DNA from: an uncultured virus (IMG/VR IMGVR_UViG_3300017917_002479)
Taxonomy: Duplodnaviria > Heunggongvirae > Uroviricota > Caudoviricetes
Virus record (IMG/VR): IMGVR_UViG_3300017917_002479
Reading direction: 5' to 3' (one strand)
Length of the DNA: 20,000 bases
Within the stretch, counting starts at the first letter, position 1. Every line of letters begins with the position of its first letter. This document shows positions 1 to 18,778 of this stretch, in pieces. A program made the position numbers and the translations under genes. The notes beneath the pieces were generated by a model that was not told the origin of the DNA, made no database searches, and saw only the letters and a program-made list of their open reading frames with translations.

Positions 1-1
1 A

Positions 2-262
2 GCCAAGCTGCCCTACGACTGCACACTCAACATGGTCGTCGAGGTCCGCTACGGGAAGGTCCGCGAGTGGACCGACCTGCACGACCGCACGCAGTGGATT
101 GGCTGGGGTTCCTCGAACACCACCGACGAGCGCTTCGTGGTGTCGAGCATGTCGACGAAGCAGAAGGCCAAGGCGCTGGCGCTGGACGGGCACATGGTCC
201 CCGACATTGCGTCGAAGCTCCAGCGCCCGGCGCGCGTCATTGAGAAGTGGCTCGGTCTTTAA
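2..262 (+). CDS. 5'-truncated CDS; C-terminal end with an HTH-like tail, possibly of a phage primase/helicase-type replication protein
   Basis: Frame is open from the window start (AKLPYDCTLNMVVEVRYGKVRE...). The C-terminus ALALDGHMVPDIASKLQRPARVIEKWL looks like an HTH. Function is a guess. Confidence 0.5.
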   Translation, partial: AKLPYDCTLNMVVEVRYGKVREWTDLHDRTQWIGWGSSNTTDERFVVSSMSTKQKAKALALDGHMVPDIASKLQRPARVIEKWLGL

Positions 263-680
263 CCAGTGCAATTACGCGCGCGTTCGGAAAGAACTTGCGC
301 ACCTCATCAGCGGCGGCGGCGACCTCGGGATAGAGCGCCCGGTTCTCCGCCGCCGTTTTGCCAGCCAGATACGTGACCTCGTAGATGTCCTCCAGCTCCG
401 GCGTGTGAGGCAGCCCACGCAGCTCGTCATCGTCCGGCGCAAGACGCTCCCGCACCACGGCAGCCGCAGCCTCCAGATGCTCAGGGATCGGTCGTCCCCG
501 GCGGATCAACTGCTCAACGTATTCGAGTTCTTTGGGGCCGAGGTTTTTGGGCATAAGTGTGGCCAGTCGAGAAATCGCCGGAACCACCGACAGACCAAAC
601 TCCACCGCCCCCTTAATCGAACTCAAGTCGTTTCCACGGACCCGCACGCACTCCAAGGGAGTGCGGGTCCGCCTGTTCAA
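237..680 (-). CDS. Hypothetical protein, lone inverted gene; true start uncertain (TTG 680, GTG 606 or ATG 554)
   Basis: Protein-like composition from MPKNLGPKELEY onward; lies downstream of a predicted leftward promoter. Confidence 0.55.
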   Translation of the reverse strand: MNRRTRTPLECVRVRGNDLSSIKGAVEFGLSVVPAISRLATLMPKNLGPKELEYVEQLIRRGRPIPEHLEAAAAVVRERLAPDDDELRGLPHTPELEDIYEVTYLAGKTAAENRALYPEVAAAADEVRKFFPNARVIALVKDRATSQ

Positions 681-711
681 ACCGACTCAAACCACAGACA
701 TTTATGGAGAC

Positions 712-751
712 CAGCGGAGCGGCAGTCCGGGGGACTGACGCGCAGCGTTCA
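712..751 (-). repeat. 40-nt hairpin element, left copy (inverted relative to 1185-1224)
   Basis: Reverse complement TGAACGCTGCGCGTCAGTCCCCCGGACTGCCGCTCCGCTG matches 1185-1224 at 35/40 positions. Confidence 0.9.
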
Positions 752-789
752 GCTCAAATCATCTCACTTCGAGAGCTAAGAGCGATTTC

Positions 790-818
790 TTGATACCTCA
801 CAAAAATTGACTTGGCAA
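790..818 (-). promoter_or_regulatory. Putative leftward sigma70-type promoter
   Basis: TTGCCA-N17-TATCAA on the - strand in an AT-rich intergenic region. Confidence 0.45.
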
Positions 819-842
819 CACCCTTGCACACCCCTAGGTGTC
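812..842 (+). promoter_or_regulatory. Putative rightward promoter overlapping a palindromic operator-like site
   Basis: TTGGCA-N17-TAGGTG; CACACC-CCTA-GGTGTC at 827-842. Confidence 0.35.
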
Positions 843-866
843 CTACTCCCACCACAGGAGTAACCC

Positions 867-1175
867 ATGACCAACGAGGATCGCGAGCGCCTTCTCAAAT
901 ACCGCCGTCGCTTCAAGGCGCGTGGCATCGACAAGCGTCGCCAAGATCGGCGTAATCCAGACCCGCGCGTCAAAAAGGGGGACCGCTTCGGCAAACTCGA
1001 AGTGACCCTCCCCAACTACCTTAACATCACTATGTGCATGGCCCGCTGCGAATGCGGCCACGAGGGCGCTTACCGCGCACAAGACCTGCTCGATGGCCGC
1101 AAATCCCATTGCGGGTGCAGCCGTAGTTATCGCCGGGGCGCGGCCCTCGGTGAGGGCCGGGCCGCGCCGGAATAG
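867..1175 (+). CDS. Small Arg-rich, Cys-containing protein (zinc-binding module of the type seen N-terminal to phage HNH/AP2 proteins)
   Basis: AGGAG RBS; GDRFGKLEV...CECG...LLDG..SHCGC motif; Arg-rich N-terminus; no HNH domain follows. Confidence 0.7.
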   Translation: MTNEDRERLLKYRRRFKARGIDKRRQDRRNPDPRVKKGDRFGKLEVTLPNYLNITMCMARCECGHEGAYRAQDLLDGRKSHCGCSRSYRRGAALGEGRAAPE

Positions 1176-1184
1176 ATTCGTGGT

Positions 1185-1224
1185 TGACCGCTGCGCGGCC
1201 GTCCCCCGGACGGCCTCTCCGCTG
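1185..1224 (+). repeat. 40-nt hairpin element, right copy
   Basis: TGACCGCTGCGCGGCCGTCCCCCGGACGGCCTCTCCGCTG; perfect stem GGCCGTCC-CCC-GGACGGCC at 1197-1215. Confidence 0.9.
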
Positions 1225-1253
1225 TCCTGTTCGCGCTCCCGTTTTATTTCTCA

Positions 1254-1289
1254 TGTCCCGTTGACGAGACACACCTAAAGGTGTCATCT
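1254..1289 (+). promoter_or_regulatory. Putative promoter with two overlapping palindromic sites
   Basis: TTGACG at 1261 preceded by an AT-rich tract; TGTCCCG-TTGA-CGAGACA (1254-1271) and CACACC-TAAA-GGTGTC (1270-1285). Confidence 0.45.
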
Positions 1290-1322
1290 ACACACCCACA
1301 CATGGCACGCGTGGGGTGGTCA

Positions 1323-1619
1323 ATGTCTCGTCGGATTGCGCTCTCCGAAACCCAAGTCGAATGGCTCCGTGCCAACCACCGGAAGCACACGCATGTTGAA
1401 CTTGCCACCGCCATTGGCTGCCATGTCGACACACTCAAACGCATCTTGGCCCGTCTTGGCCTCCAATCCTTTCCCGGCGCAAAATACCAAGTCGCGACCA
1501 CCTCGCTCATCCAAACTTGGAACCGCCCCTGCCTCGATTGCGGCTGCACCAAGTCGCGTCCCCGCCACCACTACTTCTGCAAGCCCTGCCGCACCCAACG
1601 AGGTTTCAATGACGAGTAA
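1323..1619 (+). CDS. HTH plus C4 zinc-finger putative transcription regulator
   Basis: THVELATAIGCHVDTLKRIL is HTH-like; CLDC...CKPC at the C-terminus; GGGGTGG upstream of ATG 1323. Confidence 0.7.
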   Translation: MSRRIALSETQVEWLRANHRKHTHVELATAIGCHVDTLKRILARLGLQSFPGAKYQVATTSLIQTWNRPCLDCGCTKSRPRHHYFCKPCRTQRGFNDE

Positions 1620-1809
1620 GCCTTTCATCCCCTACACCACCTCCCTCTACCCGTTCGAGCAGGCCCGCGCTCGCATCGGCGAAGCGGCCTACCGCCGCAG
1701 CATCCTGTTCTCCTACGTGATCCCTGTCCTTGCAGCCGAACTCGCGCCTCCTCCATCCCTCCGCGCCCACCTCCTCTCTTCCACCACCCTCAACCGGAGC
1801 CTCTTTTAA
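1609..1809 (+). CDS. Hypothetical protein (66 aa)
   Basis: Overlaps the preceding gene end, has TAATG coupling to the next gene, and uses C-ending codons like its neighbours. Confidence 0.55.
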   Translation: MTSKPFIPYTTSLYPFEQARARIGEAAYRRSILFSYVIPVLAAELAPPPSLRAHLLSSTTLNRSLF

Positions 1810-2012
1810 TGCCCCGCTACTTCACTCGGCGCGCCACCCCAAAGGCGACGCTCTACGTTGAAGACGATCACTATGGTCGGCCACAGGACATCATGCCCTC
1901 CGTGGACGAACACGAACCCACCTACACTGGCCTGCTCGATGCCAACGGCGACCCGATCTGGCGAGAACCCCGCGCAATCGGCTTCGGTCGGCACGACGAA
2001 TGGGACGAATAG
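1809..2012 (+). CDS. Small hypothetical phage protein
   Basis: TAATG coupling; TGLLDANGDPIWR...AIGF segment resembles small phage proteins. Confidence 0.65.
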   Translation: MPRYFTRRATPKATLYVEDDHYGRPQDIMPSVDEHEPTYTGLLDANGDPIWREPRAIGFGRHDEWDE

Positions 2013-2025
2013 CAGGAGCCTGACA

Positions 2026-2424
2026 ATGGAAACCACCACCCCCAAGAAGAAGCGCACCAATGGCCGCGCAATGAAGGCCAAGGGCGACCGCGTGGAACGC
2101 GAGGTGGCCGCCCACATGGCCAGCGTCTTGGGCCTCGACATCCGGCGCGCGCCGCTCTCCGGCGGCGGCGTCATCCATGGCCTGTCCGGGGGCGCTGACC
2201 TGTCCGGCACGCCGGGCCTCCACGTCGAGGTCAAGGCGGTCGAAGCGCTGTCCTTCCCCGCCGCCCTCGCGCAAGCCGAGGCGTCCCTCCTCAAGTCCCG
2301 CGCCCCCGAGGTGCCCATCGTCATCAACCGGCGCAACCGCCAGTCCACCGGCGACTCCTACGTCCTCCTCCGCCTCGACGCCTTCCTCGACTTCTACGCG
2401 TCGTGGCTGGCCCAACGCCCCTAA
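2026..2424 (+). CDS. PD-(D/E)xK nuclease, Holliday junction resolvase-like
   Basis: CAGGAG RBS; KAKGDRVEREVA...ADL...HVEVK motif pattern. Confidence 0.8.
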   Translation: METTTPKKKRTNGRAMKAKGDRVEREVAAHMASVLGLDIRRAPLSGGGVIHGLSGGADLSGTPGLHVEVKAVEALSFPAALAQAEASLLKSRAPEVPIVINRRNRQSTGDSYVLLRLDAFLDFYASWLAQRP

Positions 2425-2434
2425 GGAACCCGCC

Positions 2435-2689
2435 ATGACCTCCATCACCTCCATCACCTCCATCCCCTCGATCCTCGACGACTACGAGCCGCTCACCCCC
2501 TCGCCCGTCGACAAGTCCATCGAAACCCTCAACCGCCTCATCGAGATGGCCGAGCGCGCCGCCCCCAAGACGACCCTCATCACTGGCCCCGGCGGTCTCG
2601 GCCGCATCCCCTACAGCCACAGCACGCTCACTGTGCCTCCAGCAATGGGCATTGCCCCCTCTCCATTCGGGACGACCACCCTCTCGTAA
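2435..2689 (+). CDS. Hypothetical protein (84 aa)
   Basis: TAAGGA RBS; begins with three ACCTCCATC units (TSI x3). Confidence 0.6.
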   Translation: MTSITSITSIPSILDDYEPLTPSPVDKSIETLNRLIEMAERAAPKTTLITGPGGLGRIPYSHSTLTVPPAMGIAPSPFGTTTLS

Positions 2690-2695
2690 CCCCTT

Positions 2696-2729
2696 AACGT
2701 CCTCGACAACCACCATTGTCGAGGACGTT
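2696..2729 (+). promoter_or_regulatory. Perfect 14-bp hairpin occluding the RBS of the spike-base gene
   Basis: AACGTCCTCGACAA-CCACCA-TTGTCGAGGACGTT; GAGGA lies in the 3' arm; ATG at 2732. Confidence 0.75.
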
Positions 2730-2731
2730 TC

Positions 2732-3010
2732 ATGGCTGACCCCTACTCGAACGGCGCAGACATGTCGGCACCCGCCCAGCGCGGGGCAGCCGTCAACCTC
2801 GCGGCCGACACCACTTTCACCTCCGAAGCTGAACCCCGTGGCATTTGGGTCGGCGGCGCTGGCAACATTGTCATGTCGCTCGTCCACGCCCCGGCCACCT
2901 TCCTCACCTTCACCGGCGTCCAAGCTGGCACGATGTTGGCTGTCCGCCCCGCCGTAATCCGCTCGACTGCCAACGGCACGTCGGCCACTGGTATCTTGGC
3001 CCTCTGGTGA
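2732..3010 (+). CDS. Head spike base protein, RcGTA Rcc01079-like
   Basis: 92 aa; MADP...SAPA...RGIWVGGAGNI...TFTGVQAG...GTSATGILALW matches the pattern I recall for this family. Confidence 0.8.
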   Translation: MADPYSNGADMSAPAQRGAAVNLAADTTFTSEAEPRGIWVGGAGNIVMSLVHAPATFLTFTGVQAGTMLAVRPAVIRSTANGTSATGILALW

Positions 3011-3288
3011 TGCAAGACGCCCTCTTCATCACCTTCGTGATCCTGTTCGGCGCGGCCATGTCCGCGTTCGTCTACTGGCGCGCCTTCGCCTCGGCTCCCC
3101 CAGCCTCCACCGCCATCGAGTTCCCCACGCCCACCATCAAGATGCAGCGCGAAGCCGCCTCCCACGTGCGCCGCCTCGATCTCGCCATCGCCCAAGCCAC
3201 GGACCCCGCCCAGATCGCAGGCCTCACCGCTTGGCGCGATTTCTACGCCAACCTCCCTGACCCCGAAGACGCCGAAGAAGGAGCCTGA
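3010..3288 (+). CDS. Hypothetical protein with N-terminal hydrophobic helix
   Basis: TGATG coupling; LFITFVILFGAAMSAFVYW. Confidence 0.65.
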   Translation: MQDALFITFVILFGAAMSAFVYWRAFASAPPASTAIEFPTPTIKMQREAASHVRRLDLAIAQATDPAQIAGLTAWRDFYANLPDPEDAEEGA

Positions 3289-3291
3289 TCC

Positions 3292-3723
3292 ATGGGCACG
3301 CCCGTCCTCTACAACCAGTTCAAGCTCAAGCAGCACAATGGCAACGCCATTGACCTCGACAACGCGACCATCAAGGTGATGATCGTCACCAACTCCTACG
3401 TCCCCTCCCTCGCCCACGCCTTCAAGTCCGACATCACCTCCGAAGTCTCGGGCACCAACTACACCGCGCGCGGCACCGCCATCTCGGGCGTCACCCTCGC
3501 CCTCGACGGCAACACCGTCGAATGGGTCCACAACGACATCACGTGGCTCCAGTCCGCCTCCGGCTTCTCCAATGGCCGCACCTTCATCTGGTATGAAGAC
3601 ACGGGCGTCGACGCCACCTCCAAGCTCATCATGTATATGCAAGAGGGCGCAGACTTCGGGAACGTCGCTGGCGACCTGACCCTCGACGGCTCGCCCACCA
3701 CGGGCGTCCTCAACTTCACCTAA
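3292..3723 (+). CDS. Putative virion structural/fibre subunit
   Basis: GAAGGAG RBS; YNQFK...IDLD..TIKVMIV...EVSGTNYTARG resembles a common family of ~140-aa phage structural proteins. Confidence 0.7.
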   Translation: MGTPVLYNQFKLKQHNGNAIDLDNATIKVMIVTNSYVPSLAHAFKSDITSEVSGTNYTARGTAISGVTLALDGNTVEWVHNDITWLQSASGFSNGRTFIWYEDTGVDATSKLIMYMQEGADFGNVAGDLTLDGSPTTGVLNFT

Positions 3724-3731
3724 AAACCACC

Positions 3732-4724
3732 ATGGCTGGCCCCTTCCACAACGCAATCTGCGGCACCACCGCAAGTTCCCCCGGAACCGGCGCGTTCACC
3801 CCGAACGCCGCCGCCCCCGGCTTCCTTGCTTGGTCCACGGTCCCAACAGGTTGGATCGGCCTCGTGCGTTACCAAGACGGCTCCAACTGGGAACTCGCCT
3901 TCGGCTACTGGAACGGCACCACCATCAGCCGACCCTCCAACATCCTCGCGTCTTCGTCCGGCTCGCGTCTCTCCCTCTCGGCCTCGGCGACCGCCTCCCT
4001 CGTTGTCTCCGGCTTCAATGTCGCCCCCGCCATCCTTGGCGGGGACCGTGGCTGGATACCCCTCATCAACGGCACCACGCCCACGCCCATCGGGGTTGCG
4101 GCGGGAACCTTTACTGGCACCAACGCTGCGGTCACACCGACAACGACCAACTTCCTGACTGAGCAGCCGCGCTCTCAAATCACCAGCGCGACCACAGCCA
4201 ACGCCCAATCAGCTTTCGCTAACGGCACCAACTCCGTCTTGGTCAACACCACAGCCGGTCGTGGTGGCTGGATGGCCATGGCCCGGTTCGGTGCGTCCCA
4301 ACTTCCATCTGGCCCCCGCCTCTTCGTCGGTGTGACCTCGACCAGCCTTGTCGGCAACACGGGCGAACCCAGCGCCCTCACCGCCAACTACGCGACCTTC
4401 GCCAAGGACTCGACCGACACCAACATCCAGCTCCTCACGAACTCCAACGCTGGCACCGGAACCAAGATCGACACCGGCATTGCAATGGCCGCGAACGACT
4501 GGTTCCACGCGCAACTCTGGACGCCCCCCGGCTCGACCACGGTCCATGGCCTCCTCATCAAAATGAATGGCGGCTCGATCTACTACGGCTCCACCTCCAC
4601 CGACACGCCCGTCAACGGTGCAGCCATGGCTCCCAATGTGGTCAGCGGCCTGTCCGCCACCACCGGCACCGCCGTGATCTTCCATTTCGGCGGCTTCACC
4701 TTCCGCAACGGCGGCCTCCTCTAA
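3732..4724 (+). CDS. Putative virion structural protein (T/G/A/S-rich, beta-rich)
   Basis: 330 aa; composition and position within the structural module. Confidence 0.7.
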   Translation: MAGPFHNAICGTTASSPGTGAFTPNAAAPGFLAWSTVPTGWIGLVRYQDGSNWELAFGYWNGTTISRPSNILASSSGSRLSLSASATASLVVSGFNVAPAILGGDRGWIPLINGTTPTPIGVAAGTFTGTNAAVTPTTTNFLTEQPRSQITSATTANAQSAFANGTNSVLVNTTAGRGGWMAMARFGASQLPSGPRLFVGVTSTSLVGNTGEPSALTANYATFAKDSTDTNIQLLTNSNAGTGTKIDTGIAMAANDWFHAQLWTPPGSTTVHGLLIKMNGGSIYYGSTSTDTPVNGAAMAPNVVSGLSATTGTAVIFHFGGFTFRNGGLL

Positions 4725-5635
4725 TGTGGGGCATAAAAGGGTTTGGCGTCGAGCCATTCGCCTCGACCCCCATCTCCTCTGGAACGCCCACCACAATCTC
4801 GGTGACGGCGGCGACCCTCGCCGCCTCCCCCCTCGTAATCACGCTTAACGCCAGCCACCTGATCGGCGTCACACCCCAAAGCCTCGTCGCCGCTCCTCAA
4901 GCGACGCTAACCAACGCGCGTCGCTCCGTCCTCGTCACCACCTTGTCCGCCCTCTACACTGGGCAGACGATCACTCGTCTCACCGCCAACCGCGTCGTCG
5001 TCACCCCCCAAACCGCCGCCCTCACTGGCCAGCCAATCAACCTCAACAAGCGCCTCCTCGTGGGCGTCACCGTCCGCACGCTCCCGGCCACCCCCCAACC
5101 CATCCTAACCAACGCGCGTCGCTCCATCACCGTGACGCCCACCTCCCTCACTGCCACCCCCCAAACCGTCTTCACCAACCGGGGCACGTCCGTCTTCGCC
5201 TTTGTGCGCACGGCTACCCTCACGCCCCAGCCCATCACCGTAAACGCGCGCCGCTCGATCACCATCACGACGGCCACCCTCACTGCCACCCCTCGCCTCA
5301 TCCTCCGTTCGCTGCGCGTCCCCGTCACCGCGCGCACGGCCAGCTATGCCCCCCAAACCACTGGCCTCAACCGCCAGACCCGCATCGCTGTCACCGTCCG
5401 CACCCTCGCCTCCACCGCCCTCCCCATCACTCTCAACGCGCGCCGCAACATCGTGGCCACCACCCGCACGGCCACCTACACTGGCCAGCCCATAACCCTT
5501 CGTCTCGACCGGCGCGTCTCCGTATCCCCTGCCCTTGGCCTCTACGAGGCTCCCTTCATCCTCGCCCAAGTCAACTTCGACGACGGCCTCTGGCAGGATC
5601 GCGTGGCCAACCTGCGCATGACGCTGTCCCCCTAG
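4724..5635 (+). CDS. Fibre-like protein made of about 12 tandem 22-aa repeats
   Basis: TAATG coupling; repeat consensus approximately IxVTxxTLxxTPQPITxNARRS. Confidence 0.8.
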   Translation: MWGIKGFGVEPFASTPISSGTPTTISVTAATLAASPLVITLNASHLIGVTPQSLVAAPQATLTNARRSVLVTTLSALYTGQTITRLTANRVVVTPQTAALTGQPINLNKRLLVGVTVRTLPATPQPILTNARRSITVTPTSLTATPQTVFTNRGTSVFAFVRTATLTPQPITVNARRSITITTATLTATPRLILRSLRVPVTARTASYAPQTTGLNRQTRIAVTVRTLASTALPITLNARRNIVATTRTATYTGQPITLRLDRRVSVSPALGLYEAPFILAQVNFDDGLWQDRVANLRMTLSP

Positions 5636-5649
5636 CGGGACGACAGCCC

Positions 5650-5670
5650 CCACCATGCGGCGCATGGTGG
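5650..5670 (+). promoter_or_regulatory. Perfect inverted repeat occluding the RBS of the 905-aa gene
   Basis: CCACCATGCG-G-CGCATGGTGG, 4 nt before ATG 5675. Confidence 0.65.
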
Positions 5671-5674
5671 CCCT

Positions 5675-8392
5675 ATGACCGGCGCAATCTCCCCCTTCAA
5701 CCTCAAGCTCCGCAACCGTCGTTCTGGCACCACGACGCTCCCCGCCGACTTCTTCGTCACCAACGACGCTGAGCTGGCCTCCGTCTTGGCTCTCGGTGCG
5801 GCCACGCTGTCCGGCAAGACCGTCGCAATGACCGGCACCTTCACAACGCCGAACTTCAACGTCAAACCAGCCTCTACTCTGACCTTCCGCAGCCTTAATC
5901 CTGCGTCCCCGGCTGTCCTGATCCGCACCAAGTTGAACGGCTCGGGGAACATCAAGTTCCAAGACCTGAAGATGGTCACGGATTGCTTCACCGATAACGG
6001 ATCGGGCAACTCGGGCTTTGAGGCGATCTTCTACAACTCGGGAGCTTTCGGCAGCCACACATTTTCAAGCTGCATCATTCGTGGCGGCTACGGCGGTCCG
6101 GGGTCGGTGGGAGCAGTCTACAACAACGACTACAACCCCACCGCCACCTACCCAGAATACGCCTGCATCATCCCGACTTTCACGGCGGGCGCTATCACCG
6201 CGCTTTCCTGCACTGCGCCAAACAACTATGTTGGCGGCCTGCTGGCTGACGGCACGGGCTATGCGTGGAGCGTCAACACCAACACCTCGACCAACGGCGG
6301 GGTAACTTGGACCGTGCCTGCGACTGGGACTTTCGATGTTGTTTCGGGCCTGATTACCAACTTGGTCATCACAAACGGCGGTGCCTCCAATGCCGGGACC
6401 AATCCGGGGCTTGGCACACAGGTCAAGACGATCACTTGGGCCGCGCAGCGCCCGTTCATTAACGTGACGGCAGGCGGCGTGGGCGCATCCGGCGGTATCA
6501 CTTGGGACGCCGGAACGCAGATTTTCGAGGATTGCACCTTCTCGGACCTGCGCGACGGCATCAAGCACAGCATCGCCGCGCCCGGTAAGTTCATCGCCCG
6601 TCGCAACACCTTTATCCGCCTCTACCACGACGCTATCGTCCCCGCCTTGGCGGGTTCGGAAGCGGGTGCTGATCGCACGATTACCGACAACTTTGTGACT
6701 CAAGTCATGGCGCTGCCGACCGACCCGTTCGACCCCCACGCCGACGGGGTGCAGACCTACATGGGAACGTCGACGCCGAGCGATTGGCCGAACGTCACGA
6801 TCGAGCGCAACGTCATGCTCATCGGCAATACGCGCGGGGTGGCGCAAGGCATCTTCATGGAGAGCCTGACCGGCAAGTATTACACGAACCTGCGCATCGT
6901 CGGGAACATGGTCCTGTCGGCTTACGACATCAACCAGATGGCGCTGCCTGATACCAACGGGGCTTACGTCTATCGCAACACCTTTGTTCGCATGGTCCCT
7001 GACGATCCGCAGAACAGCGGGCGCGATGCGACCCTCCGCTACAATAGTGGCCGGACGGCAATCGGCAACAGCTACATCGCCAAGAACTTCTACGAAGCGG
7101 TGAGCCTGTCGGGTGTCTATGTCGGCAGCGGAAACGTGCAGGTTACTCGCGGCGACAACACCGATTACAACGCGAAGTTTGCTAGCCCCCCGACTTATGC
7201 AGGCGGGGCTGGTTCGTGGCCCACCACCAAGGCGCAGGCACTGGCGGCGTTTGCTCCTGAGACGGCTTACATCGGAACGGGCGCGGGTGGTTCAGACGGG
7301 TATCTGGACTACACGAACAACACCACCGATCTAACCAAGGAGCCGGTGTTTGTCGCCTTCGTGGACCTGACCGCGCAGACACCCTCGTCAAACGTTTCTT
7401 CGGGCTGGGTGCAAATCCTCGGCGGCCCTGCGACGGGCTCTATCTCGATCACCGGGGGAACTTACCAGTTTGCCGATGACAGCAGTGGGACCAATGCCAC
7501 GGCTGCGACTTCGGCCAGCGCGACTTACACGCGCGGCAAGTTTCTGCGCCTGAATGTGACCAACTCGGCCAGCGGCCTGACCACCACGACCGCCACGGTC
7601 ACGCTTCAGGGCACGGGTTCGGCGGCAAGCCAGAACTATTCGTTCGCCTCGACCACGGTTTCGACCTTTGTTCGCCCGGTGGTCCTGCTCGACACGGCCA
7701 CCCCGGACCTCTTCCGCGCGACCGGCGCTACCACGATGGGCAGCGACAGCTTCCTCGGCACGATTGCCATTTGGGGCCTCAAGGTCAACGGCAACCCGGC
7801 TGCACAGACGCAAATCTTCAACGTGTCGGCAGGTTCGGCGACGATCCAGATTGCCATCGACGCAAGCGGCCAGCTTCGCGTCAACCTGCGCAACGCCGCT
7901 GCCTCTACGATTGCCCAGTTGTTCACGCCCAACACCTTCTGCAACAACGTCGCGCACGACCTGCTCATCAGCTTCGACACCAACGACACCTCGGCAACCT
8001 CCGGCCTCCACTTCTACCTCGACGGTGTCCGCATCACCTCTGGCCACTCGTGGATCAGCGCGTCCTCCCAAGTCGCCTACAGCCGCTCCCTCTCCAGCTA
8101 CCAAGTTGGCCCCGGCGCTTCTCAAAAGGACTACGAAATCGCCGGTCTCTACATTCACCCCGGCGTCCGCGTGGACTTTACCAACTCTGCCAACCGCACA
8201 GCCTTCACCCTCGCCCCCTCCTCGATGGGCGTCAACGGCTCGACCCCGACCGGCTCGCAGCCCCGCTACTTCTTCGTGGGCAAGGCAGCTCAGTGGAACG
8301 ACGTCGCCGGTATCAACTTCGGCTCCGGCCCCAAGTTCATCAAGGTCGGCTCGGCGGCGGCCGCCGACGTCTCTGGCAACACGTGGGCTTAA
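5675..8392 (+). CDS. Large receptor-binding/depolymerase-like protein (right-handed beta-helix, Ig-like linker, C-terminal ConA/LamG-like domain)
   Basis: Beta-helix-like strands (ITDNFV, HADGVQ, VTIERNV, RIVGNMV, YVYRNTF); LamG-like HDLLISFD...HFYLDGV near the C-terminus. Confidence 0.7.
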   Translation: MTGAISPFNLKLRNRRSGTTTLPADFFVTNDAELASVLALGAATLSGKTVAMTGTFTTPNFNVKPASTLTFRSLNPASPAVLIRTKLNGSGNIKFQDLKMVTDCFTDNGSGNSGFEAIFYNSGAFGSHTFSSCIIRGGYGGPGSVGAVYNNDYNPTATYPEYACIIPTFTAGAITALSCTAPNNYVGGLLADGTGYAWSVNTNTSTNGGVTWTVPATGTFDVVSGLITNLVITNGGASNAGTNPGLGTQVKTITWAAQRPFINVTAGGVGASGGITWDAGTQIFEDCTFSDLRDGIKHSIAAPGKFIARRNTFIRLYHDAIVPALAGSEAGADRTITDNFVTQVMALPTDPFDPHADGVQTYMGTSTPSDWPNVTIERNVMLIGNTRGVAQGIFMESLTGKYYTNLRIVGNMVLSAYDINQMALPDTNGAYVYRNTFVRMVPDDPQNSGRDATLRYNSGRTAIGNSYIAKNFYEAVSLSGVYVGSGNVQVTRGDNTDYNAKFASPPTYAGGAGSWPTTKAQALAAFAPETAYIGTGAGGSDGYLDYTNNTTDLTKEPVFVAFVDLTAQTPSSNVSSGWVQILGGPATGSISITGGTYQFADDSSGTNATAATSASATYTRGKFLRLNVTNSASGLTTTTATVTLQGTGSAASQNYSFASTTVSTFVRPVVLLDTATPDLFRATGATTMGSDSFLGTIAIWGLKVNGNPAAQTQIFNVSAGSATIQIAIDASGQLRVNLRNAAASTIAQLFTPNTFCNNVAHDLLISFDTNDTSATSGLHFYLDGVRITSGHSWISASSQVAYSRSLSSYQVGPGASQKDYEIAGLYIHPGVRVDFTNSANRTAFTLAPSSMGVNGSTPTGSQPRYFFVGKAAQWNDVAGINFGSGPKFIKVGSAAAADVSGNTWA

Positions 8393-8398
8393 CGCATC

Positions 8399-8737
8399 AT
8401 GCTCCGCACCCTGCGCACCTTCCTCTCCGACATCCTCACGTCGACCACGACGCCGCCCGAAGGGCGCTTGCGCGCCTTCATGTCGCTCTCCCTCTTCGGC
8501 GCTGGAGTGGCGCTCACCCTCTTCTCCGCCGCCATCGTCCTCATCGTCTGGCTCGGCGCATGGTCCCCATCCACCGAAGCCCAGCGCCTCGACATCCTCG
8601 GCAACGCCCTCATGGCCGTCTTGGGTGGCGTGATCCTCTCCCTCATCGGCCTCGCCGTGGGCGGCCCCATCGGCCGCATCTCTGGCAAGGTCGGCCTCGC
8701 CGAGTTCAACGCCTCGCAAGACAAGGACGACGCCTAA
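8399..8737 (+). CDS. Putative holin
   Basis: 112 aa, two hydrophobic segments, charged C-terminus, directly upstream of the spanins. Confidence 0.6.
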   Translation: MLRTLRTFLSDILTSTTTPPEGRLRAFMSLSLFGAGVALTLFSAAIVLIVWLGAWSPSTEAQRLDILGNALMAVLGGVILSLIGLAVGGPIGRISGKVGLAEFNASQDKDDA

Positions 8738-9258
8738 TGCCCCCCTTCCTCGCCTCACCCGTCTGGCGCATCGCTTCCAGCGTCAGCGCCCTCATCCTCC
8801 CCTTCGCCCTGCTGGCCCTCTTCATCGCCAACAAGCAGGCCTCCCACTTCAAGACGGCCTACGAAACCCAAGTCCAGCTCAACGCCGACCTCGTCGCCGA
8901 CATCGAACTGGCCTCGGCCAAAGCCACCCTCGAAGCCACCGCCGCAGCCGAACGCAAGGCCTCTGCCTACGCCCGCATCCAACAGGAGAAGACCGATGCC
9001 CTCCAAGCCAACCTCGCTTCTGCTCGCAGCGTTCTTGCTGCTTACCGCCTGCGGGCCGAAGCCCGCTCCCCGCAAGATCAGCGTGGCTCCGGCCAAGACG
9101 GTGTGCCCCGCCCTGCCGACGCCTCCGGCGACCCTGCTCCTTCCGCTCCCGCAGATTTCGTTCTTGTCCCCGCTTCCGACCTCGACGCCTGCGCAGTCGC
9201 CTCCGTGACGGCCCAAGGCTGGCAAGACTGGTGGACCGCCGTGTCCAAAGCGCCCTGA
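8737..9258 (+). CDS. Rz: Inner-membrane spanin (Rz-like)
   Basis: TAATG coupling; N-terminal TM, Ala-rich coiled coil, C-terminal Cys; contains an embedded lipoprotein gene. Confidence 0.8.
   Translation: MPPFLASPVWRIASSVSALILPFALLALFIANKQASHFKTAYETQVQLNADLVADIELASAKATLEATAAAERKASAYARIQQEKTDALQANLASARSVLAAYRLRAEARSPQDQRGSGQDGVPRPADASGDPAPSAPADFVLVPASDLDACAVASVTAQGWQDWWTAVSKAP
8996..9208 (+). CDS. Rz1: Outer-membrane spanin lipoprotein (Rz1-like), fully embedded in the +1 frame
   Basis: AGGAG RBS; signal peptide with lipobox LTAC; Pro-rich mature part. Confidence 0.85.
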   Translation: MPSKPTSLLLAAFLLLTACGPKPAPRKISVAPAKTVCPALPTPPATLLLPLPQISFLSPLPTSTPAQSPP

Positions 9259-9267
9259 CTCTGGCGC

Positions 9268-9310
9268 AGAAACGAAGAAAGGCGCGAGTCCTAACGGACC
9301 CGCGCCTTTC
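9268..9310 (-). terminator. Intrinsic terminator at the convergence of the two arms (possibly bidirectional)
   Basis: - strand GAAAGGCGCGGGTCC-GTTA-GGACTCGCGCCTTTC followed by TTCGTTTCT. Confidence 0.75.
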
Positions 9311-9358
9311 ACTCCCACCACAGGAGCGCCCCACAACTAGGAGCACCCCCTCCAACCG

Positions 9359-9724
9359 TCAACCTCGCGTCACAAGCGCCTGCTTGATCCGCTCCAAGAC
9401 ACCCAGCATGAACGTGCCACACCTCGGACCCGCCATCGTATAGCGATAGTCCCGCAGCACCTCACCACTGGCCTCGTCTTCCCTCTCGTCGAACTCGATA
9501 ATCATGATCGACTCGACGCGCTTCTCCCCACTCTGAATGGCCCTGAGCAAATCAATCAGCGCGTCCTCTGGCCGCCAGTGATCGCTCCTGTTCGTCCTGC
9601 CCACCCGCAACTCGCCAATCGTCTTGGGCGCATCCGCAAAGTCCTCAACCACATAGGGCGGCGCGTCATTCACAACGTCGCCCATGCGCAGCGGCACGAC
9701 CTTGCCTTCATCCTCGTCTTGCAC
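9359..9724 (-). CDS. Hypothetical protein (121 aa, GTG start)
   Basis: AGGAGAAGGA RBS before GTG 9724; the upstream ORF extension crosses hairpins. Confidence 0.7.
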   Translation of the reverse strand: MQDEDEGKVVPLRMGDVVNDAPPYVVEDFADAPKTIGELRVGRTNRSDHWRPEDALIDLLRAIQSGEKRVESIMIIEFDEREDEASGEVLRDYRYTMAGPRCGTFMLGVLERIKQALVTRG

Positions 9725-9748
9725 AGTCCTTCTCCTTCTCAAATTAGT

Positions 9749-9811
9749 GAGGCCTCGCATCCCCCTGAATGAAAGGATGCGAGGCCTCTGCCCGCCCATC
9801 GTTTTGGGCCG
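9749..9811. other. Strong intergenic hairpin (14 bp) followed by part of a second GC hairpin
   Basis: GAGGCCTCGCATCC-N12-GGATGCGAGGCCTC (9749-9788); a second imperfect stem starts at 9790. Confidence 0.65.
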
Positions 9812-9827
9812 GTGGCGGGCGGACAAA

Positions 9828-10142
9828 TCAGGCGGCTTCTGCCTCGGCCGCCACAGGTTCAGCAGCACGAGCCAGCTTGCCCAGCATATCGCCGATCACG
9901 CCAGCATCATCGAGCCGCCCCTTCAATTCGTTGATGATGCGCGCACCAAACTGCCAGTCGCGCTGATCCTCAACCACCTTCGACCACTCAAAGCCGAAGC
10001 CCACGATGTTCCCCTTCTCATCGACCGCAGCCAGCACATGCAGCAGCGGCACGGGCGAGACACCCACAGGCACCGGGCCAGTCGCATCAGCGGCATCCGC
10101 CGCAATGTCCGCATCTTCAACGATGCTCGTCACTTCTTCCAT
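9828..10142 (-). CDS. Hypothetical acidic protein (104 aa)
   Basis: TAGGAG RBS 7 nt before ATG. Confidence 0.7.
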   Translation of the reverse strand: MEEVTSIVEDADIAADAADATGPVPVGVSPVPLLHVLAAVDEKGNIVGFGFEWSKVVEDQRDWQFGARIINELKGRLDDAGVIGDMLGKLARAAEPVAAEAEAA

Positions 10143-10152
10143 CACCAGTCTC

Positions 10153-10353
10153 CTATTCAGCCCAGCCCGTCGTATCGGACCAGTCGCTAACCTCACGCAT
10201 CCGGCCCAAGTCCTGCACCTGCGATGTCATGCTATCGGCAAGATCATCCATCGCATCACGCAAAAAACTGCCGGGCGAATACCCATCTGCCATGGCCCGC
10301 AACCGCTCGACCATGGCCTCAAGTTCCTCCTGCTCGTCTTCGTAGACCCGCAT
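10153..10353 (-). CDS. Hypothetical acidic protein (66 aa)
   Basis: AAGGAAGG RBS; directly downstream of a predicted promoter. Confidence 0.65.
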   Translation of the reverse strand: MRVYEDEQEELEAMVERLRAMADGYSPGSFLRDAMDDLADSMTSQVQDLGRMREVSDWSDTTGWAE

Positions 10354-10370
10354 GTTAACCTTCCTTGAAG

Positions 10371-10425
10371 GGGTGTCGCTTACGACACCCAAGTCACACC
10401 TTAACCTGTCACGCATTCGTGACAA
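10371..10425 (-). promoter_or_regulatory. Putative promoter with palindromic site and leader hairpin
   Basis: TTGTCA-N16-TAAGGT; perfect palindrome TGTCACG-CATT-CGTGACA (10407-10424); hairpin GGGTGTCG-N4-CGACACCC (10371-10390). Confidence 0.55.
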
Positions 10426-10455
10426 GCCCTCCCCATCCAATTTTTTTGGTGCCCT

Positions 10456-11484
10456 TTAGAGGCGTGCGACCGCCAAGCGTTTACTGTCACTGGCGAAGTG
10501 CGCGTAACGCTGCACCATCCCCAGCCCTTCGTGGCCCAGCAGCTCTGCAACCACGGCCAGCGGGGTTCCCCGCTGCACCAGCTTGCTGGCAAAGGTCCGA
10601 CGCAGATCGTGAAGCTGCACGTCTTCGACCCCGGCCATGGCTGCAATCTCGGGTGCCCGCTTCGACAACGTGGACGTTGTCAGCTTATACCCATACCAGT
10701 TGCGAAACACCCTCCCCCGGCGCTTCTCCCATGGCACGCTCTTCTGCCCATTAAGCCGGGCTTGCTCCTGCAAGGCTTCCATGGCCCGCCCATTCAGCGG
10801 AACGTGGCGCTCCCTCACAATCCCCTCCTGCCCCTTCTTCGTGCGGAACGTAACGAACCGTGTTGCCACCCCCGTCTCCTTGTCGATGTCGACCCAAAAG
10901 TCCTTCCATTCCAGATCGCCAATCTCACCCGCCCGCGCCCCGGTCATGGCCAAGAACAGGTAGGCGGGCCACAGATACTCCGGCGTCTTGAGCAAGAACG
11001 CCTCAAGCTCCGCATCATTAAGCCACCGGAACCGACGACCCTCATCCCGTGGCTTCTTCACATCGAGCGGATCGCACCACCCACGCTCAGCCCCAAAGTT
11101 CCAGATCGCCTTGGCCACGGTCAGCGTCTTACGCACACTCGATGGCGTGCAGTGACTCATAGTCCGATCAACAAAGTCCAAGACCTGCGCCGCCGTGATC
11201 GTCTTGATCTTCCGGTCCGAAAACTCATCGAGCAACCGGCGCACATCGCACATGGTGCCCTCGCTCAGGCCCCGCTTCTTGCTCCGCAGATAGGCATCCA
11301 CGACCTCATCGAAGTATTCCCGAGCGACCAGCACCTTGCCCTTGCTCGCCGCCAATTCCATCTGCAACCGCTTCTCTTCGGCCACAGCACGCACCTCAGT
11401 CCGCAAACTCAGGCGCACGCGCATCCCATTGACGGTGCCGCGTGCATGCCAGATGCCCTTAACCTTCTTCAGTTTCAGTGCCAT
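10456..11484 (-). CDS. int: Tyrosine recombinase / phage integrase
   Basis: TGAR, RTKK, HDLRRT, LLGH and RYAH catalytic motifs; N-terminal arm-binding-like beta region; GGTGGAG RBS. Confidence 0.92.
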   Translation of the reverse strand: MALKLKKVKGIWHARGTVNGMRVRLSLRTEVRAVAEEKRLQMELAASKGKVLVAREYFDEVVDAYLRSKKRGLSEGTMCDVRRLLDEFSDRKIKTITAAQVLDFVDRTMSHCTPSSVRKTLTVAKAIWNFGAERGWCDPLDVKKPRDEGRRFRWLNDAELEAFLLKTPEYLWPAYLFLAMTGARAGEIGDLEWKDFWVDIDKETGVATRFVTFRTKKGQEGIVRERHVPLNGRAMEALQEQARLNGQKSVPWEKRRGRVFRNWYGYKLTTSTLSKRAPEIAAMAGVEDVQLHDLRRTFASKLVQRGTPLAVVAELLGHEGLGMVQRYAHFASDSKRLAVARL

Positions 11485-11902
11485 CGTCTCCACCATACCT
11501 GTAGAGCGGCGCATAAGGATCGTCCTTGCGCCACTGATTGTCCCACGTCTTCGGCAGGCCCCCGCTCCACCGCATGTATTCTTCCGGGTTCGTCGCATCG
11601 AAGCGGGCCTTCGCCACCACCACGACACTGGCCCGGTTATGCACCCCGAACTTGGCAAAGAGGCTGCGCACATAGACCTTGGCCGTGTTCACGGTCACGC
11701 CGAACCGCTCGGCGATCTCGGCGTTGCTCGCCCCCCGCAGCAACATCTGCAAGGCGGCATGCTGCTTGGTCGTCAGCGTCGGCAGCGGCGGAGCCAAGTC
11801 CGCACCACCACACACCCGCTCAAGCGCCATCACCCGCCCCTCAAGCCGCGCAATCTCTATGCGCACGGCCGTCAACTCCTCACGAATGTTGTCCTGTTCC
11901 AT
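11459..11902 (-). CDS. LuxR/GerE-type HTH transcription regulator without sensor domain
   Basis: LTTKQHAALQMLLRGASNAEIAERFGVTVNTAKVYVRSLFAKFGVHNR; N-terminal coiled-coil-like segment. Confidence 0.88.
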   Translation of the reverse strand: MEQDNIREELTAVRIEIARLEGRVMALERVCGGADLAPPLPTLTTKQHAALQMLLRGASNAEIAERFGVTVNTAKVYVRSLFAKFGVHNRASVVVVAKARFDATNPEEYMRWSGGLPKTWDNQWRKDDPYAPLYRYGGDDGTETEEG

Positions 11903-11932
11903 GGTCCTAGTCCTTTGTTTCCCAGCGGGCCG

Positions 11933-11973
11933 ACCCTACACCCCTTTCCTCGTCTTGTCACGCCAATGAGACA
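11933..11973 (-). promoter_or_regulatory. Putative promoter for luxR-int with palindromic site
   Basis: GTGACA-N17-TAGGGT; TGTCACG-CCAA-TGAGACA at 11956-11973. Confidence 0.4.
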
Positions 11974-11975
11974 CC

Positions 11976-12662
11976 TCAAGCCACCTCCACCATGGTCAGC
12001 TTCCTGCCACGGAAGCCTGCGCCCGTGTCCAGCCACGTCTGATTTCCTATGGTTACAGCCCGCTCAACCACGTTGTGCCCATAGTAAACGTGATCGACAC
12101 CCCGCATCGGCAGGATCGAGTCGCCCCGCTCCAAGGCCTCGACCATATCCCTCGACCACATGGCGTGATTGCGCAGTGCCTTGCGCTCTCGTCGCTCAGC
12201 GTTGGCCATCCGCCACCGAAAGTTGTTCCAATCCAACCCATAGGCATCAGCATGAACCAGCCCGATGCGCCGCCCACTCGGACTGTTCACCGTGATCGTG
12301 ACCGGCAGTGTGGCCGCAAGACGGCAGGCCGCTCGGCGTTGTTCATCCGCCAGCTCGGCAAACCACGCACCACCGTTGGCCACGTGATAGCCCGCCGCCT
12401 TCGGGTTCTCGCTGGCCTCAAGCATCATGGCCTCGTGATTACCCATGACCGAGTGGAACCACGGCTCGTTCAGCAGCGACAAGACGCCCATGCTGTCCGG
12501 CCCCCGGTCCACCAGATCCCCCAACGCAAACAGGTGGTCGCGGTCGGCAATGAAGCCGACCCGCCCCAACTCCTGCATCAATTGGTCGAGGCACCCATGC
12601 ACGTCACCCACGACGAACATGCGCGCCCCTTCCAGCCACTCAATGTTCAGGTCTCTTTCCAT
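11976..12662 (-). CDS. Metallophosphoesterase, lambda NinI/PrpA-type Ser/Thr protein phosphatase
   Basis: GDVHG, GDLVDRG, GNHE, GH and LDTG motifs. Confidence 0.9.
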   Translation of the reverse strand: MERDLNIEWLEGARMFVVGDVHGCLDQLMQELGRVGFIADRDHLFALGDLVDRGPDSMGVLSLLNEPWFHSVMGNHEAMMLEASENPKAAGYHVANGGAWFAELADEQRRAACRLAATLPVTITVNSPSGRRIGLVHADAYGLDWNNFRWRMANAERRERKALRNHAMWSRDMVEALERGDSILPMRGVDHVYYGHNVVERAVTIGNQTWLDTGAGFRGRKLTMVEVA

Positions 12663-12681
12663 CGTCCTATCCTTCCTGCTG

Positions 12682-12709
12682 CGCCGGGCCGCGCTTGCGC
12701 GGCCCGGCG
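12682..12709. other. Perfect all-GC intergenic hairpin
   Basis: CGCCGGGCCGCGC-TT-GCGCGGCCCGGCG; no U-tract on either strand. Confidence 0.7.
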
Positions 12710-12717
12710 AAACCCGA

Positions 12718-13560
12718 TCAAGCCCGACCAACCGTAGCCATGTTGGCCAGATCGAGCGGACCACTCACGACCTCGTCGTCGTCGTCCTCGACCAAGTTGT
12801 TCACATCACGCCCCATGGCCCGCATCAACTGGCCCATGGCCCGAGCCTGCGCCTCGGCCTGCAAGGCGTTCTCGTAAGCCTCCTTGATCGTCTCGATTAC
12901 GACGCCCTTCGAGCGGCTCTTCATCACGTCCTCGTCCCAATCAATCGGGGCAAGCAGGCTGATGCTACCATCCCTGATGATAGCCAAGACGGGGGTGTTG
13001 CGATGCGCTCCCTTCTTCTCGTTGATTTCGTAGCAGCGCTGCGTGATCTGTTCCTTGACCATGCCCAGCGCAATGCGGTTCACTTCCATCGGGAACAGGT
13101 TGGCGAACATGTCGGAGAACCACAGCGACAGCGGCCACAGGTTGCCGGGCCAGCGCCGACCAACCCGCAGCACCACACCCATGGCGTAGAGCGCAACGAC
13201 CAGCCCAAGCCGCTCCCTGAACCGGCGCAGCCCATCACGAAAGCCCATGGCCTCGCCATGCGTGTCAGTGCATTCGTCGTCGAGGCAGGCGTGCGACCAG
13301 CTCCGCCACATGGCCGAACGCATGTCGCTGCGCACCATCCGAAGCTGCTCACTCAGCGCCAGCCACCCGTCGTGGAAGAGCGCCTTGGTCTTCTCGTAAT
13401 GTTCCTCGCTGTTCGACATGGGGTTGCCGAGCATCTGGATCATGTCGCTCACGCTCTTGACGTGCGGGGTGCCCCGCTCCTCGTTCTTGCGACGCGCCTC
13501 GTCGAGGCTGATGTTGGAGTTCACGTCTTGGGTGTGCGGCCCCTTGTTCTTCTTACGCAT
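12718..13560 (-). CDS. Hypothetical protein (about 280 aa)
   Basis: CCCACCACACAGGAG leader; ATG 13560 has better RBS spacing than 13566. Confidence 0.7.
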   Translation of the reverse strand: MRKKNKGPHTQDVNSNISLDEARRKNEERGTPHVKSVSDMIQMLGNPMSNSEEHYEKTKALFHDGWLALSEQLRMVRSDMRSAMWRSWSHACLDDECTDTHGEAMGFRDGLRRFRERLGLVVALYAMGVVLRVGRRWPGNLWPLSLWFSDMFANLFPMEVNRIALGMVKEQITQRCYEINEKKGAHRNTPVLAIIRDGSISLLAPIDWDEDVMKSRSKGVVIETIKEAYENALQAEAQARAMGQLMRAMGRDVNNLVEDDDDEVVSGPLDLANMATVGRA

Positions 13561-15294: not shown

Positions 15295-15499
15295 GGTTCC
15301 TTCTGTGGTGGTGACGCCTCGGAGTGGCGTCGATGATGGGGACCAAGGCGCGCAGCGCCTCGGTGTCGGAGTGACGGATACGCTTCTGCTTCACGGCCAT
15401 GGCGAACGCTTGCCACCATTGCATCGAACGGTTGGGGGCAAGCGCCCGCCAGCTTGGCCGGAAGACGGCGCGTCGCTGGCGGCGCTCGGCGGGGGTCAT
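15281..15499 (-). CDS. Small basic hypothetical protein (72 aa)
   Basis: ATGA overlap with the cobT-like stop. Confidence 0.55.
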   Translation of the reverse strand: MTPAERRQRRAVFRPSWRALAPNRSMQWWQAFAMAVKQKRIRHSDTEALRALVPIIDATPRRHHHRRNHAHD

Positions 15500-17409: not shown

Positions 17410-17437
17410 GGTATGCTTACTCCTGTGGTGGTGGGTT

Positions 17438-18664: not shown

Positions 18665-18778
18665 GCTTACTCTCACGTTGGAATGGGTTGGGTGGGGTGC
18701 TTTCGTGAACGCGGCACCCCGGCGCGCTTCCATGCGAGGCGAGGGAGAAAGGAACCGAAGCCCTGCCTCACCCCACGA

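Follow-up and report, generated by a model that had tools for sequence, protein, structure and literature searches.

The Sulfolobus plasmid pRN1 carries a 100-nt stem-loop 54 bp behind its Prim-Pol-helicase gene, which is essential and conserved in structure only (PMC4234260). Its authors proposed a downstream stem-loop start for the Prim-Pol-helicase proteins of phages too, such as that of Bordetella phage BIP-1, and did not find the priming site. In the IncQ plasmid RSF1010, the paired hairpins ssiA and ssiB work with the RepB' primase and the RepA helicase (PMC8567376). Among 64 triloops tested, only GNA formed DNA mini-hairpins, with RNA versions being much weaker, and GNA loops are described at the G4 origin, at ssiA, and at N4 promoters (PMC13037366). 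Hairpins also rebuild promoters on single strands (PMC12672017), and boxA, boxB, and put elements serve in lambdoid antitermination (PMC12360218).

Here, we analyzed a 20,000-nt stretch of DNA from an uncultured tailed phage (the window), in which two inverted 40-nt copies of a hairpin element lie between a primase-helicase gene and a helix-turn-helix (HTH) gene. On balance, these copies probably serve as signals for priming or loading on single-stranded DNA, within an origin of the pRN1 type behind the Prim-Pol/AAA_25 gene. The interval would be a replication origin by analogy with pRN1; its position, conservation, covariation, loop bias, and promoter overlap were established by sequence comparison. 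We found no paper on the 40-nt element or the stem-loop region around it in the main text of open-licence papers.

The locus and its phage family

The interval and its borders contain the following features:

1–262, plus strand: 3' end of the primase-helicase gene (Prim-Pol + AAA_25); over 86 aa, its product shares 82.6% identity with the C-terminal part of the closest relative's protein
237–554, minus strand: small leftward ORF of 105 aa; the predicted leftward transcript would carry no other gene before reaching the convergent primase gene
570–578, no strand: left basal arm of an inverted repeat (9 perfect bp, or 12 with one G-T), corresponding to the family-wide basal stem
637–671, no strand: GC-rich hairpin with an 11-bp perfect stem inside the basal arms (DNA fold z −6.2, 0 of 200 shuffles)
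712–751, minus strand: left copy of the 40-nt element, with hairpin 2 at 723–737 (loop 729–731, GGG on plus) and hairpin 1 at 738–748 (loop 742–744, GCA on plus)
777–784, minus strand: boxA-like octamer, about at the predicted +1 of the leftward promoter, probably a chance match
782–790, no strand: right basal arm of the same repeat, within 751–800, the 50-nt block with the highest A+T content (58%) in 501–1350
790–818, minus strand: predicted leftward sigma70-type promoter, TTGCCA-17-TATCAA (prediction only; a stricter promoter scan found none)
828–841, no strand: operator-like palindrome ACACC-N4-GGTGT, copy 1 (two copies only in 20 kb at ≤1 mismatch)
867–1175, plus strand: 102-aa protein with a basic N-terminal helix and one small Cys-Zn beta module (phrog_374, E 1.7e-6)
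1141–1159, no strand: 8-bp hairpin at the 3' end of ORF 867–1175, loop GGT on plus; a similar hairpin lies inside the basal arms in the closest relative
1185–1224, plus strand: right copy of the 40-nt element, with hairpin 1 at 1188–1198 (GCA loop on minus) and hairpin 2 at 1199–1213 (GGG loop on minus)
1271–1284, no strand: second copy of the operator-like palindrome, in the next gene's promoter region
1323–1619, plus strand: HTH + Cys4 protein, a candidate repressor found family-wide and used as synteny anchor; its model has three N-terminal helices

By its gene content, the window belongs to a temperate phage of the type of Roseobacter phage CRP-810. Besides the primase-helicase, it encodes a RusA-like resolvase, a tyrosine integrase (10456–11673), and CobT/CobS-like genes, so that Prim-Pol + AAA_25, resolvase, CobS/CobT, and integrase occur in the conserved order; capsid and terminase genes were seen in relatives, outside the window. 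Full-length relatives of the primase-helicase (loci L001 and L005) match PF09250 and PF13481 above cut-off, and the only full-length cultured match is that of CRP-810 (61.7% to the L005 protein). The CRP-810-type family is described as temperate and globally distributed, with 251 related genomes that share the gene set found here and a tRNA-Thr att site (PMC11288001). The text of that paper used here names no replication origin or hairpin element for the family.

The C-terminal ~35 aa of the small leftward ORF are conserved at the same location in many relatives (tblastn); the ORF found no family in Pfam, PHROGs, or Atlas and retrieved no loci as a sole query. A fold search with the HTH-Zn protein gave weak HTH fold matches only, none at E ≤0.001. 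In CRP-810 itself (L192, ~6426–6720), the HTH-Zn gene and the small leftward ORF are present, though absent from the GenBank annotation. Elsewhere in the window, the minus strand of 15496–19993 encodes a CobT-like vWA protein and two AAA ATPases (one CobS/MoxR-like), typical of CRP-810-type phages. A Thr/Ala-rich ORF of ~66-nt (22-aa) repeats lies amid tail-like genes at 4724–5635, and at 11459–12764 a LuxR-type HTH gene overlaps the integrase start, with a calcineurin-like phosphoesterase next upstream.

Relatives were fetched with the HTH-Zn gene (1323–1619) as anchor. The resulting 173 loci comprised 8 initial ones, 80 metagenome stretches (the best of 287), 79 new viral stretches (from the 80 best of 296), and all 6 genome stretches. 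With the window, this made 174 sequences, 151 of which show the order primase-helicase, interval, HTH gene; the other 23 are without a helicase end upstream and are mostly short contigs. The 151 were kept and collapsed to 65 interval clusters. The closest relative is a single phage (L009 = L089 = L090; 62,005-nt provirus G001) with the same layout as the window; at the DNA level, the two intervals match only in the hairpins and in short stretches around 846–885. This relative also has two GAAC-N7-GAAC boxes, absent from the window, beside the left basal arm (3126–3140) and in the HTH-gene promoter region (3978–3992); presumably, these are of the alphaproteobacterial SOS-box type.

The inverted pair and the family-wide stem-loop

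The reverse complement of 712–751 is identical to 1185–1224 at 35 of 40 positions, as the initial annotation had stated, and this is the longest inverted repeat in the 20-kb window. The best 40-nt inverted match in 40 dinucleotide shuffles of 1–3000 reached only 24–28 of 40. The weak extension to 760/1175 that had also been described consists of scattered ungapped matches. With up to three mismatches allowed, the element pattern occurs at two sites only in 20 kb and in 0 of 200 shuffles. Whole-genome counts came from relatives, and the 62,005-nt provirus has no further GTCC-CCC-GGAC core beyond its three interval copies.

The two copies differ at positions 4, 14, 16, 28, and 32. Positions 16 and 28 compensate within the GTCC-CCC-GGAC hairpin, as first reported, but the original count of two compensatory differences out of five was too low because positions 4 and 14 form a second such pair (A-T in the left copy, C-G in the right copy, and G-C in the relative's copy). 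The second pair sits in a 4-bp hairpin, (A/C)CGC-TGC-GCG(T/G), immediately 5' of the GTCC-CCC-GGAC hairpin, so that four of the five differences are compensatory. The rough post-hoc chance of two compensatory pairs among five differences is 3e-4, and a covariation shuffle control on the three sequences was not significant (33/500).

Each copy is thus a twin hairpin of 26 nt, and its opposite strand carries GCA and GGG loops that are each closed by C-G (C-GCA-G and C-GGG-G), triloops of the DNA mini-hairpin type. Under DNA folding, the purine-loop strand is predicted to be the more stable one, at −12.3 vs. −8.1 kcal/mol in one copy and −12.4 vs. −9.7 kcal/mol in the other. The minimum-energy fold of an isolated 40-mer is one long hairpin, and the twin-hairpin form of the left copy appears in a longer minus-strand fold, so two conformers are possible. 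Neither copy has a T-run that would support a terminator role. The Rfam search that the initial annotation had proposed matched no RNA family, yielding four weak, unrelated matches, none near gathering score.

In the closest relative, one minus-strand GTCC-CCC-GGAC copy is followed by a homologue of the 867–1175 gene and then by two plus-strand copies. The core is invariant in all five copies (two in the window and three in the relative), and hairpin 1 is present in only three of them. IMG/VR matches to the twin-hairpin pattern (20 specified bases) were confined to this relative. In other pattern scans of IMG/VR, a strict one returned 0 stretches, and looser ones returned 4 and 6, two each being the same phage and the rest being dropped as chance after showing no match to six anchor proteins. 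DNA similarity to cultured phages and plasmids was limited to short chance-level matches, and no further members of this high-GC branch were found with the relative's primase as query. Within the family, L005 has one related 12-bp hairpin, on the right side, and L015 has one different hairpin per side, with the purine loops opposed as in the window. Three other complete family genomes contain no copy of the element, and the full pair is absent from 63 of the 65 clusters with a matching operon layout. The pair is found in the window and one relative phage only, and so it is conserved but branch-specific.

A second structure is far more widespread. The earlier reading had overlooked the 637–671 hairpin, the arms 570–578/782–790 around the left copy, and the primase-helicase end at 1–262. 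Across the family, the final 350 nt of the interval contain a perfect inverted repeat (≥10 bp, arms spaced by 62–126 nt) in 58 of 65 clusters, compared to 6 of 195 background windows, a frequency not built in by the choice of arms. These arms enclose a GC-rich apical hairpin, often plus a side hairpin, in a stem-loop of ~100 nt, and CRP-810 has one with a 12-bp basal stem. The stem-loop is enlarged in the window, whose 9-bp arms lie 203 nt apart and enclose the 637–671 hairpin and the left 40-nt copy, and in its closest relative, where the arms measure 14 bp and are separated by 234 nt. Of 40 elements picked by eye, 4 were left out, and an alignment of the remaining 36 shows two-sided changes at 9 of 11 basal pairs and pairing in 99.5% of 390 cells, although this pairing figure is partly by construction, as the arms were selected for perfect pairing.

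The basal stem also overlaps a predicted promoter. An identical search for TTGAC-17-TAnAAn promoters with a score of at least 8.5 found them on the minus strand of 40/60 elements vs. the plus strand of 3/60. In 53 of 60 elements, the right arm contains the leftward −10, and in 29 of 60 an extended-(−10) TGnTA stands at the arm's outer end; outward pairing is near background beyond 5 nt, and the −35 is not reached. The −10 of the window adjoins the basal arm and overlaps part of it, whereas most relatives have it inside the arm. Because the leftward transcript starts at the inner end of the right arm, the basal stem cannot form in leftward RNA. The A+T-rich block (751–800) and the leftward promoter lie between the two 40-nt copies, so that the high-GC branch has oppositely oriented hairpin copies on both sides of them. 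The operator-like palindrome, which is matched at ≤2 mismatches in 35 of 65 relative clusters, stands at both 828 and 1271, and this suggests that a promoter-gene-hairpin cassette was added in the high-GC branch. Just inside the right arm, the minus strand also shows strongly strand-biased GAGTT/TGAGT and GACGA/AACGA (TGAGT 20 vs. 0 of 58), which are candidate start or recognition motifs.

Loop sequences in the intervals are biased toward one strand. The minus strand of the intervals (22,060 nt) has 23 C-GNA-G triloop hairpins, found in 20 of 65 clusters, compared to 15 in the 378,429 nt outside; the plus strand of the intervals has 4, and only two hairpins are in the RNA-type cUNCGg register. 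A few branches, including the closest relative and L015, have the purine loop on plus, and the GGG loops of the 40-nt copies fall outside the GNA set that formed DNA mini-hairpins (PMC13037366). With four elements left out, the minus strand folds better in 47 of 56 elements under RNA parameters and in 36 of 56 under DNA parameters, and G-U (G-T) pairs favor the minus strand (125 vs. 53). Given the better RNA folding of the minus strand and this G-U excess, an RNA leader fits as well.

Possible roles of the pair

Under the origin reading, the block at ~750–820 would be melted jointly by the phage helicase and by RNA polymerase as it opens the leftward promoter, and each exposed strand would fold its own hairpins. 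The primase-helicase could then load or prime at one copy per strand, giving two forks. If the purine-loop strand (GCA/GGG) were the template, primers would point outward; if the CCC strand were, they would cross the enclosed gene, as in IncQ origins. We also put forward, tentatively, a broader scheme in which CRP-810-type phages would use a promoter-coupled hairpin origin. With the −10 box of a host sigma70 promoter forming one stem arm, either transcription would open the origin or the folded single strand would rebuild an extended −10 for RNA priming. The high-GC branch would then have added twin mini-hairpins as Prim-Pol-helicase start sites, joining pRN1, IncQ, and single-strand-promoter features.

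Among the options raised in the initial annotation, an origin with ssi-like hairpins is the best supported, lying behind the Prim-Pol + AAA_25 gene in a conserved stem-loop region, although iterons and skew lent it no support. We found no iterons near the pair, and none of the 20 largest direct-repeat families listed lies in 1–2000. Whole-genome GC skew showed no clean switch at the element. At fourfold sites in three relatives (G003, G004, and G005), the plus strand was more C-rich right of the element, a result confounded by codon use and crude gene calls, which failed in G001. The usual skew polarity at an origin is the opposite of this.

From 1000 to 13000, the plus strand of the window is strongly C-rich (skew ~−0.25 in most 1-kb bins) in plus- and minus-strand genes alike, and then neutral; a similar 7–11 kb C-rich block lies right of the element in G001 and G003. 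Three relatives have a minus-strand Lys/Ala/Pro repeat gene before the terminase region, with TTC-loop hairpins (G001 oriented 28,600–28,800, G004 5,400–5,700, and G003 17,450–17,800), and non-coding GAA-loop hairpins flank this gene. We weighed the TTC-loop cluster as a competing origin candidate but discounted it, since most of its hairpins lie in the Lys/Ala/Pro coding repeats.

The copies could instead act as RNA in divergent early transcripts, as put- or nut-like antiterminators or other leaders, which we consider unlikely but worth weighing. In lambdoid phages, the right-hand antitermination site lies after the first gene. The layout here resembles such left/right sites, as the left copy lies ~30–70 nt after the predicted leftward start and the right copy after the first rightward gene, with two adjacent hairpins per copy. 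The CCC strand is sense in both predicted transcripts, in the window and in its closest relative, and this shared sense orientation is the strongest point for an antiterminator pair. Right of the element, convergent genes also share the plus-strand C-richness, a pattern for which long read-through could account. However, the leftward transcript spans one 105-aa gene, and no terminator-like site was found on either strand in 180–2050. The pair is also missing from the 63 other clusters, which share the operon layout, and the family basal stem cannot form in leftward RNA.

The boxB of lambda is a hairpin with a purine-rich loop that follows boxA. This loop is unmatched here, as the sense-strand loops of the 40-nt copies are UGC and CCC, and the copies fold better on the other strand; their lack of an Rfam match counts against an RNA role as well. 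The boxA octamer is indeed at 777–784 on the minus strand, but its proposed significance is doubtful. At least one arises in 38 of 200 shuffles, and it occurs in 16 of 199 loci, with a matching position in only one other cluster (L086), a point in its favor. It is absent from the closest relative under all three locus entries, and no boxB-like loop follows the window octamer. Of the nut/put proposal, then, the geometry and the sense orientation of both copies stand, whereas the boxA and the boxB loop do not.

The enclosed gene bears on this point. Its Arg-rich N-terminus is present as described, and the predicted model has a basic helix (residues 3–18) followed by a small beta module. Residues 37–87 match the N-terminus of an HNH endonuclease family (E 1.7e-6). 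The Cys-Zn module occurs in 1041 library proteins, mostly with 2–11 copies each, and some of the 26 that we scanned carry AP2 or HTH domains. Matches to the predicted fold, Tudor, SH3, and NusG-KOW domains among them, all had Z ≤4.1, below significance; the NusG/KOW match, which would suit an RNA role as the basic helix would, was weak (Z 4.0, rmsd 2.2, 45 aligned). Neither Pfam nor PHROGs gave an N-family antiterminator match. By these family matches, the protein is more likely an HNH/AP2-associated Zn module than the N-type protein first suggested. Its homologue in the closest relative is a stand-alone gene at the same location (42% identity), and this conservation indicates that the protein is probably functional. 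In L006 (5111–5804), a Zn-module gene lies directly after the primase gene, and a SET-domain gene is also in the interval.

Less likely again, the palindromes could be duplex or cruciform sites for a phage regulator, either the 867–1175 protein or the HTH-Zn protein, at divergent promoters. An invariant GTCC-CCC-GGAC core would suit such sites, as would the presence of an 867-type gene between the copies in both full-pair phages and of its module beside AP2/HTH domains. Yet changes in the outer stem pairs are compensated, something not required for duplex recognition, and both promoters already have a separate operator-like palindrome. Moreover, a related hairpin occurs in L005, where no 867 homologue is present, and L006 carries the module but no such hairpin.

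We give still less weight to a DNA-structure switch for transcription only, in which cruciform or single-strand folding would hide or rebuild the leftward −10 and the pair would stabilize that state. The −10 within a perfect stem and the TGnTA at the arm's outer end fit this idea, and hairpin-rebuilt promoters have precedent, but pairing stops short of the −35, and the promoter is complete as a duplex, unlike ssDNA promoters. A switch would also leave the right-hand copy and the tight primase-gene linkage unexplained.

Finally, it is highly improbable that the two copies bound a cassette that inverts or moves (with integrase inversion sites, as once suggested, or as a degenerate homing-endonuclease element): although they flank an ORF related to HNH endonuclease N-termini in a phage with a tyrosine integrase, the enclosed gene keeps its orientation in the only relative to carry it, the copies in that relative number three and are separated by different DNA, the compensatory changes point to folding rather than crossover homology, and the family integrase uses a tRNA-Thr att site (PMC11288001).

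Comparison with known systems

The origin reading can be set against each of the systems that the locus resembles. Like lambda nutL/nutR and HK022 putL/putR, the locus has an element in each divergent transcript, with the right-hand one behind the first gene. Unlike lambda nut, it has no conserved boxA, no boxB-type loop, and no N-like homologue in Pfam or PHROGs, and its 26-nt twin hairpin is not family-wide. For HK022 put, the promoter-proximal position and the twin hairpins fit in three of the five copies, without an Rfam match. The difference from Frpo-type ssDNA promoters is that only the −10 region pairs here, while the duplex promoter is predicted to be complete.

The family resembles GNA mini-hairpin systems, such as the G4 origin and the N4 virion RNA polymerase promoters, in having C-GNA-G triloops on one strand, upstream of a rightward operon (PMC13037366). 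No virion RNA polymerase was recognized among 55 proteins of two complete relatives, several large ORFs of which have no family.

The likeness to RSF1010 ssiA/ssiB is closer in architecture: two ~40-nt hairpin elements, one per strand, with an AEP-type primase and a RepA-like helicase. By contrast, the window is without iterons or RepC, and 433 nt and a gene lie between its copies. A search of plasmids found no sequence similarity. As an IncQ reference, we used pDN1, whose two hairpins we call ssi by their likeness to the CCGAAGG hairpin of PMC13037366 and in which iterons are plain. Its left ssi-like copy has a GC-GCA-GC hairpin, like the GCA loops of the window. The GNA loops of pDN1 lie on minus (left) and plus (right), giving crossing primers; the purine loops of the window lie on plus (left) and minus (right), the opposite orientation.

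With pRN1, the family shares a ~100-nt stem-loop 3' of a Prim-Pol-helicase gene, conserved in structure and not in sequence, and the lack of iterons. The window itself is a looser fit, as its arms are 203 nt apart with 9 bp perfect only. The family differs in having an AAA_25 (RepA-like) helicase instead of an SF3 one, in the small convergent gene that lies between, and in the promoter −10 within its basal stem, to which the high-GC branch adds an inverted hairpin pair; the function here is a predicted one. CRP-810 shares the stem-loop, though without the GTCC-CCC-GGAC pair in the interval shown.

The CRP-810-type family thus offers dozens of naturally covarying stem-loops, a cultured member in CRP-810, and a precise candidate site, so that two questions become directly testable: how a start site is chosen by a fused primase-helicase, and whether that site is opened by the RNA polymerase of the host. 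The kind of arrangement is already known, both as a stem-loop origin behind a primase-helicase and as paired ssi hairpins. What is new is a stem-loop found family-wide in CRP-810-type phages, a −10 box within its stem, and the added inverted twin hairpins.
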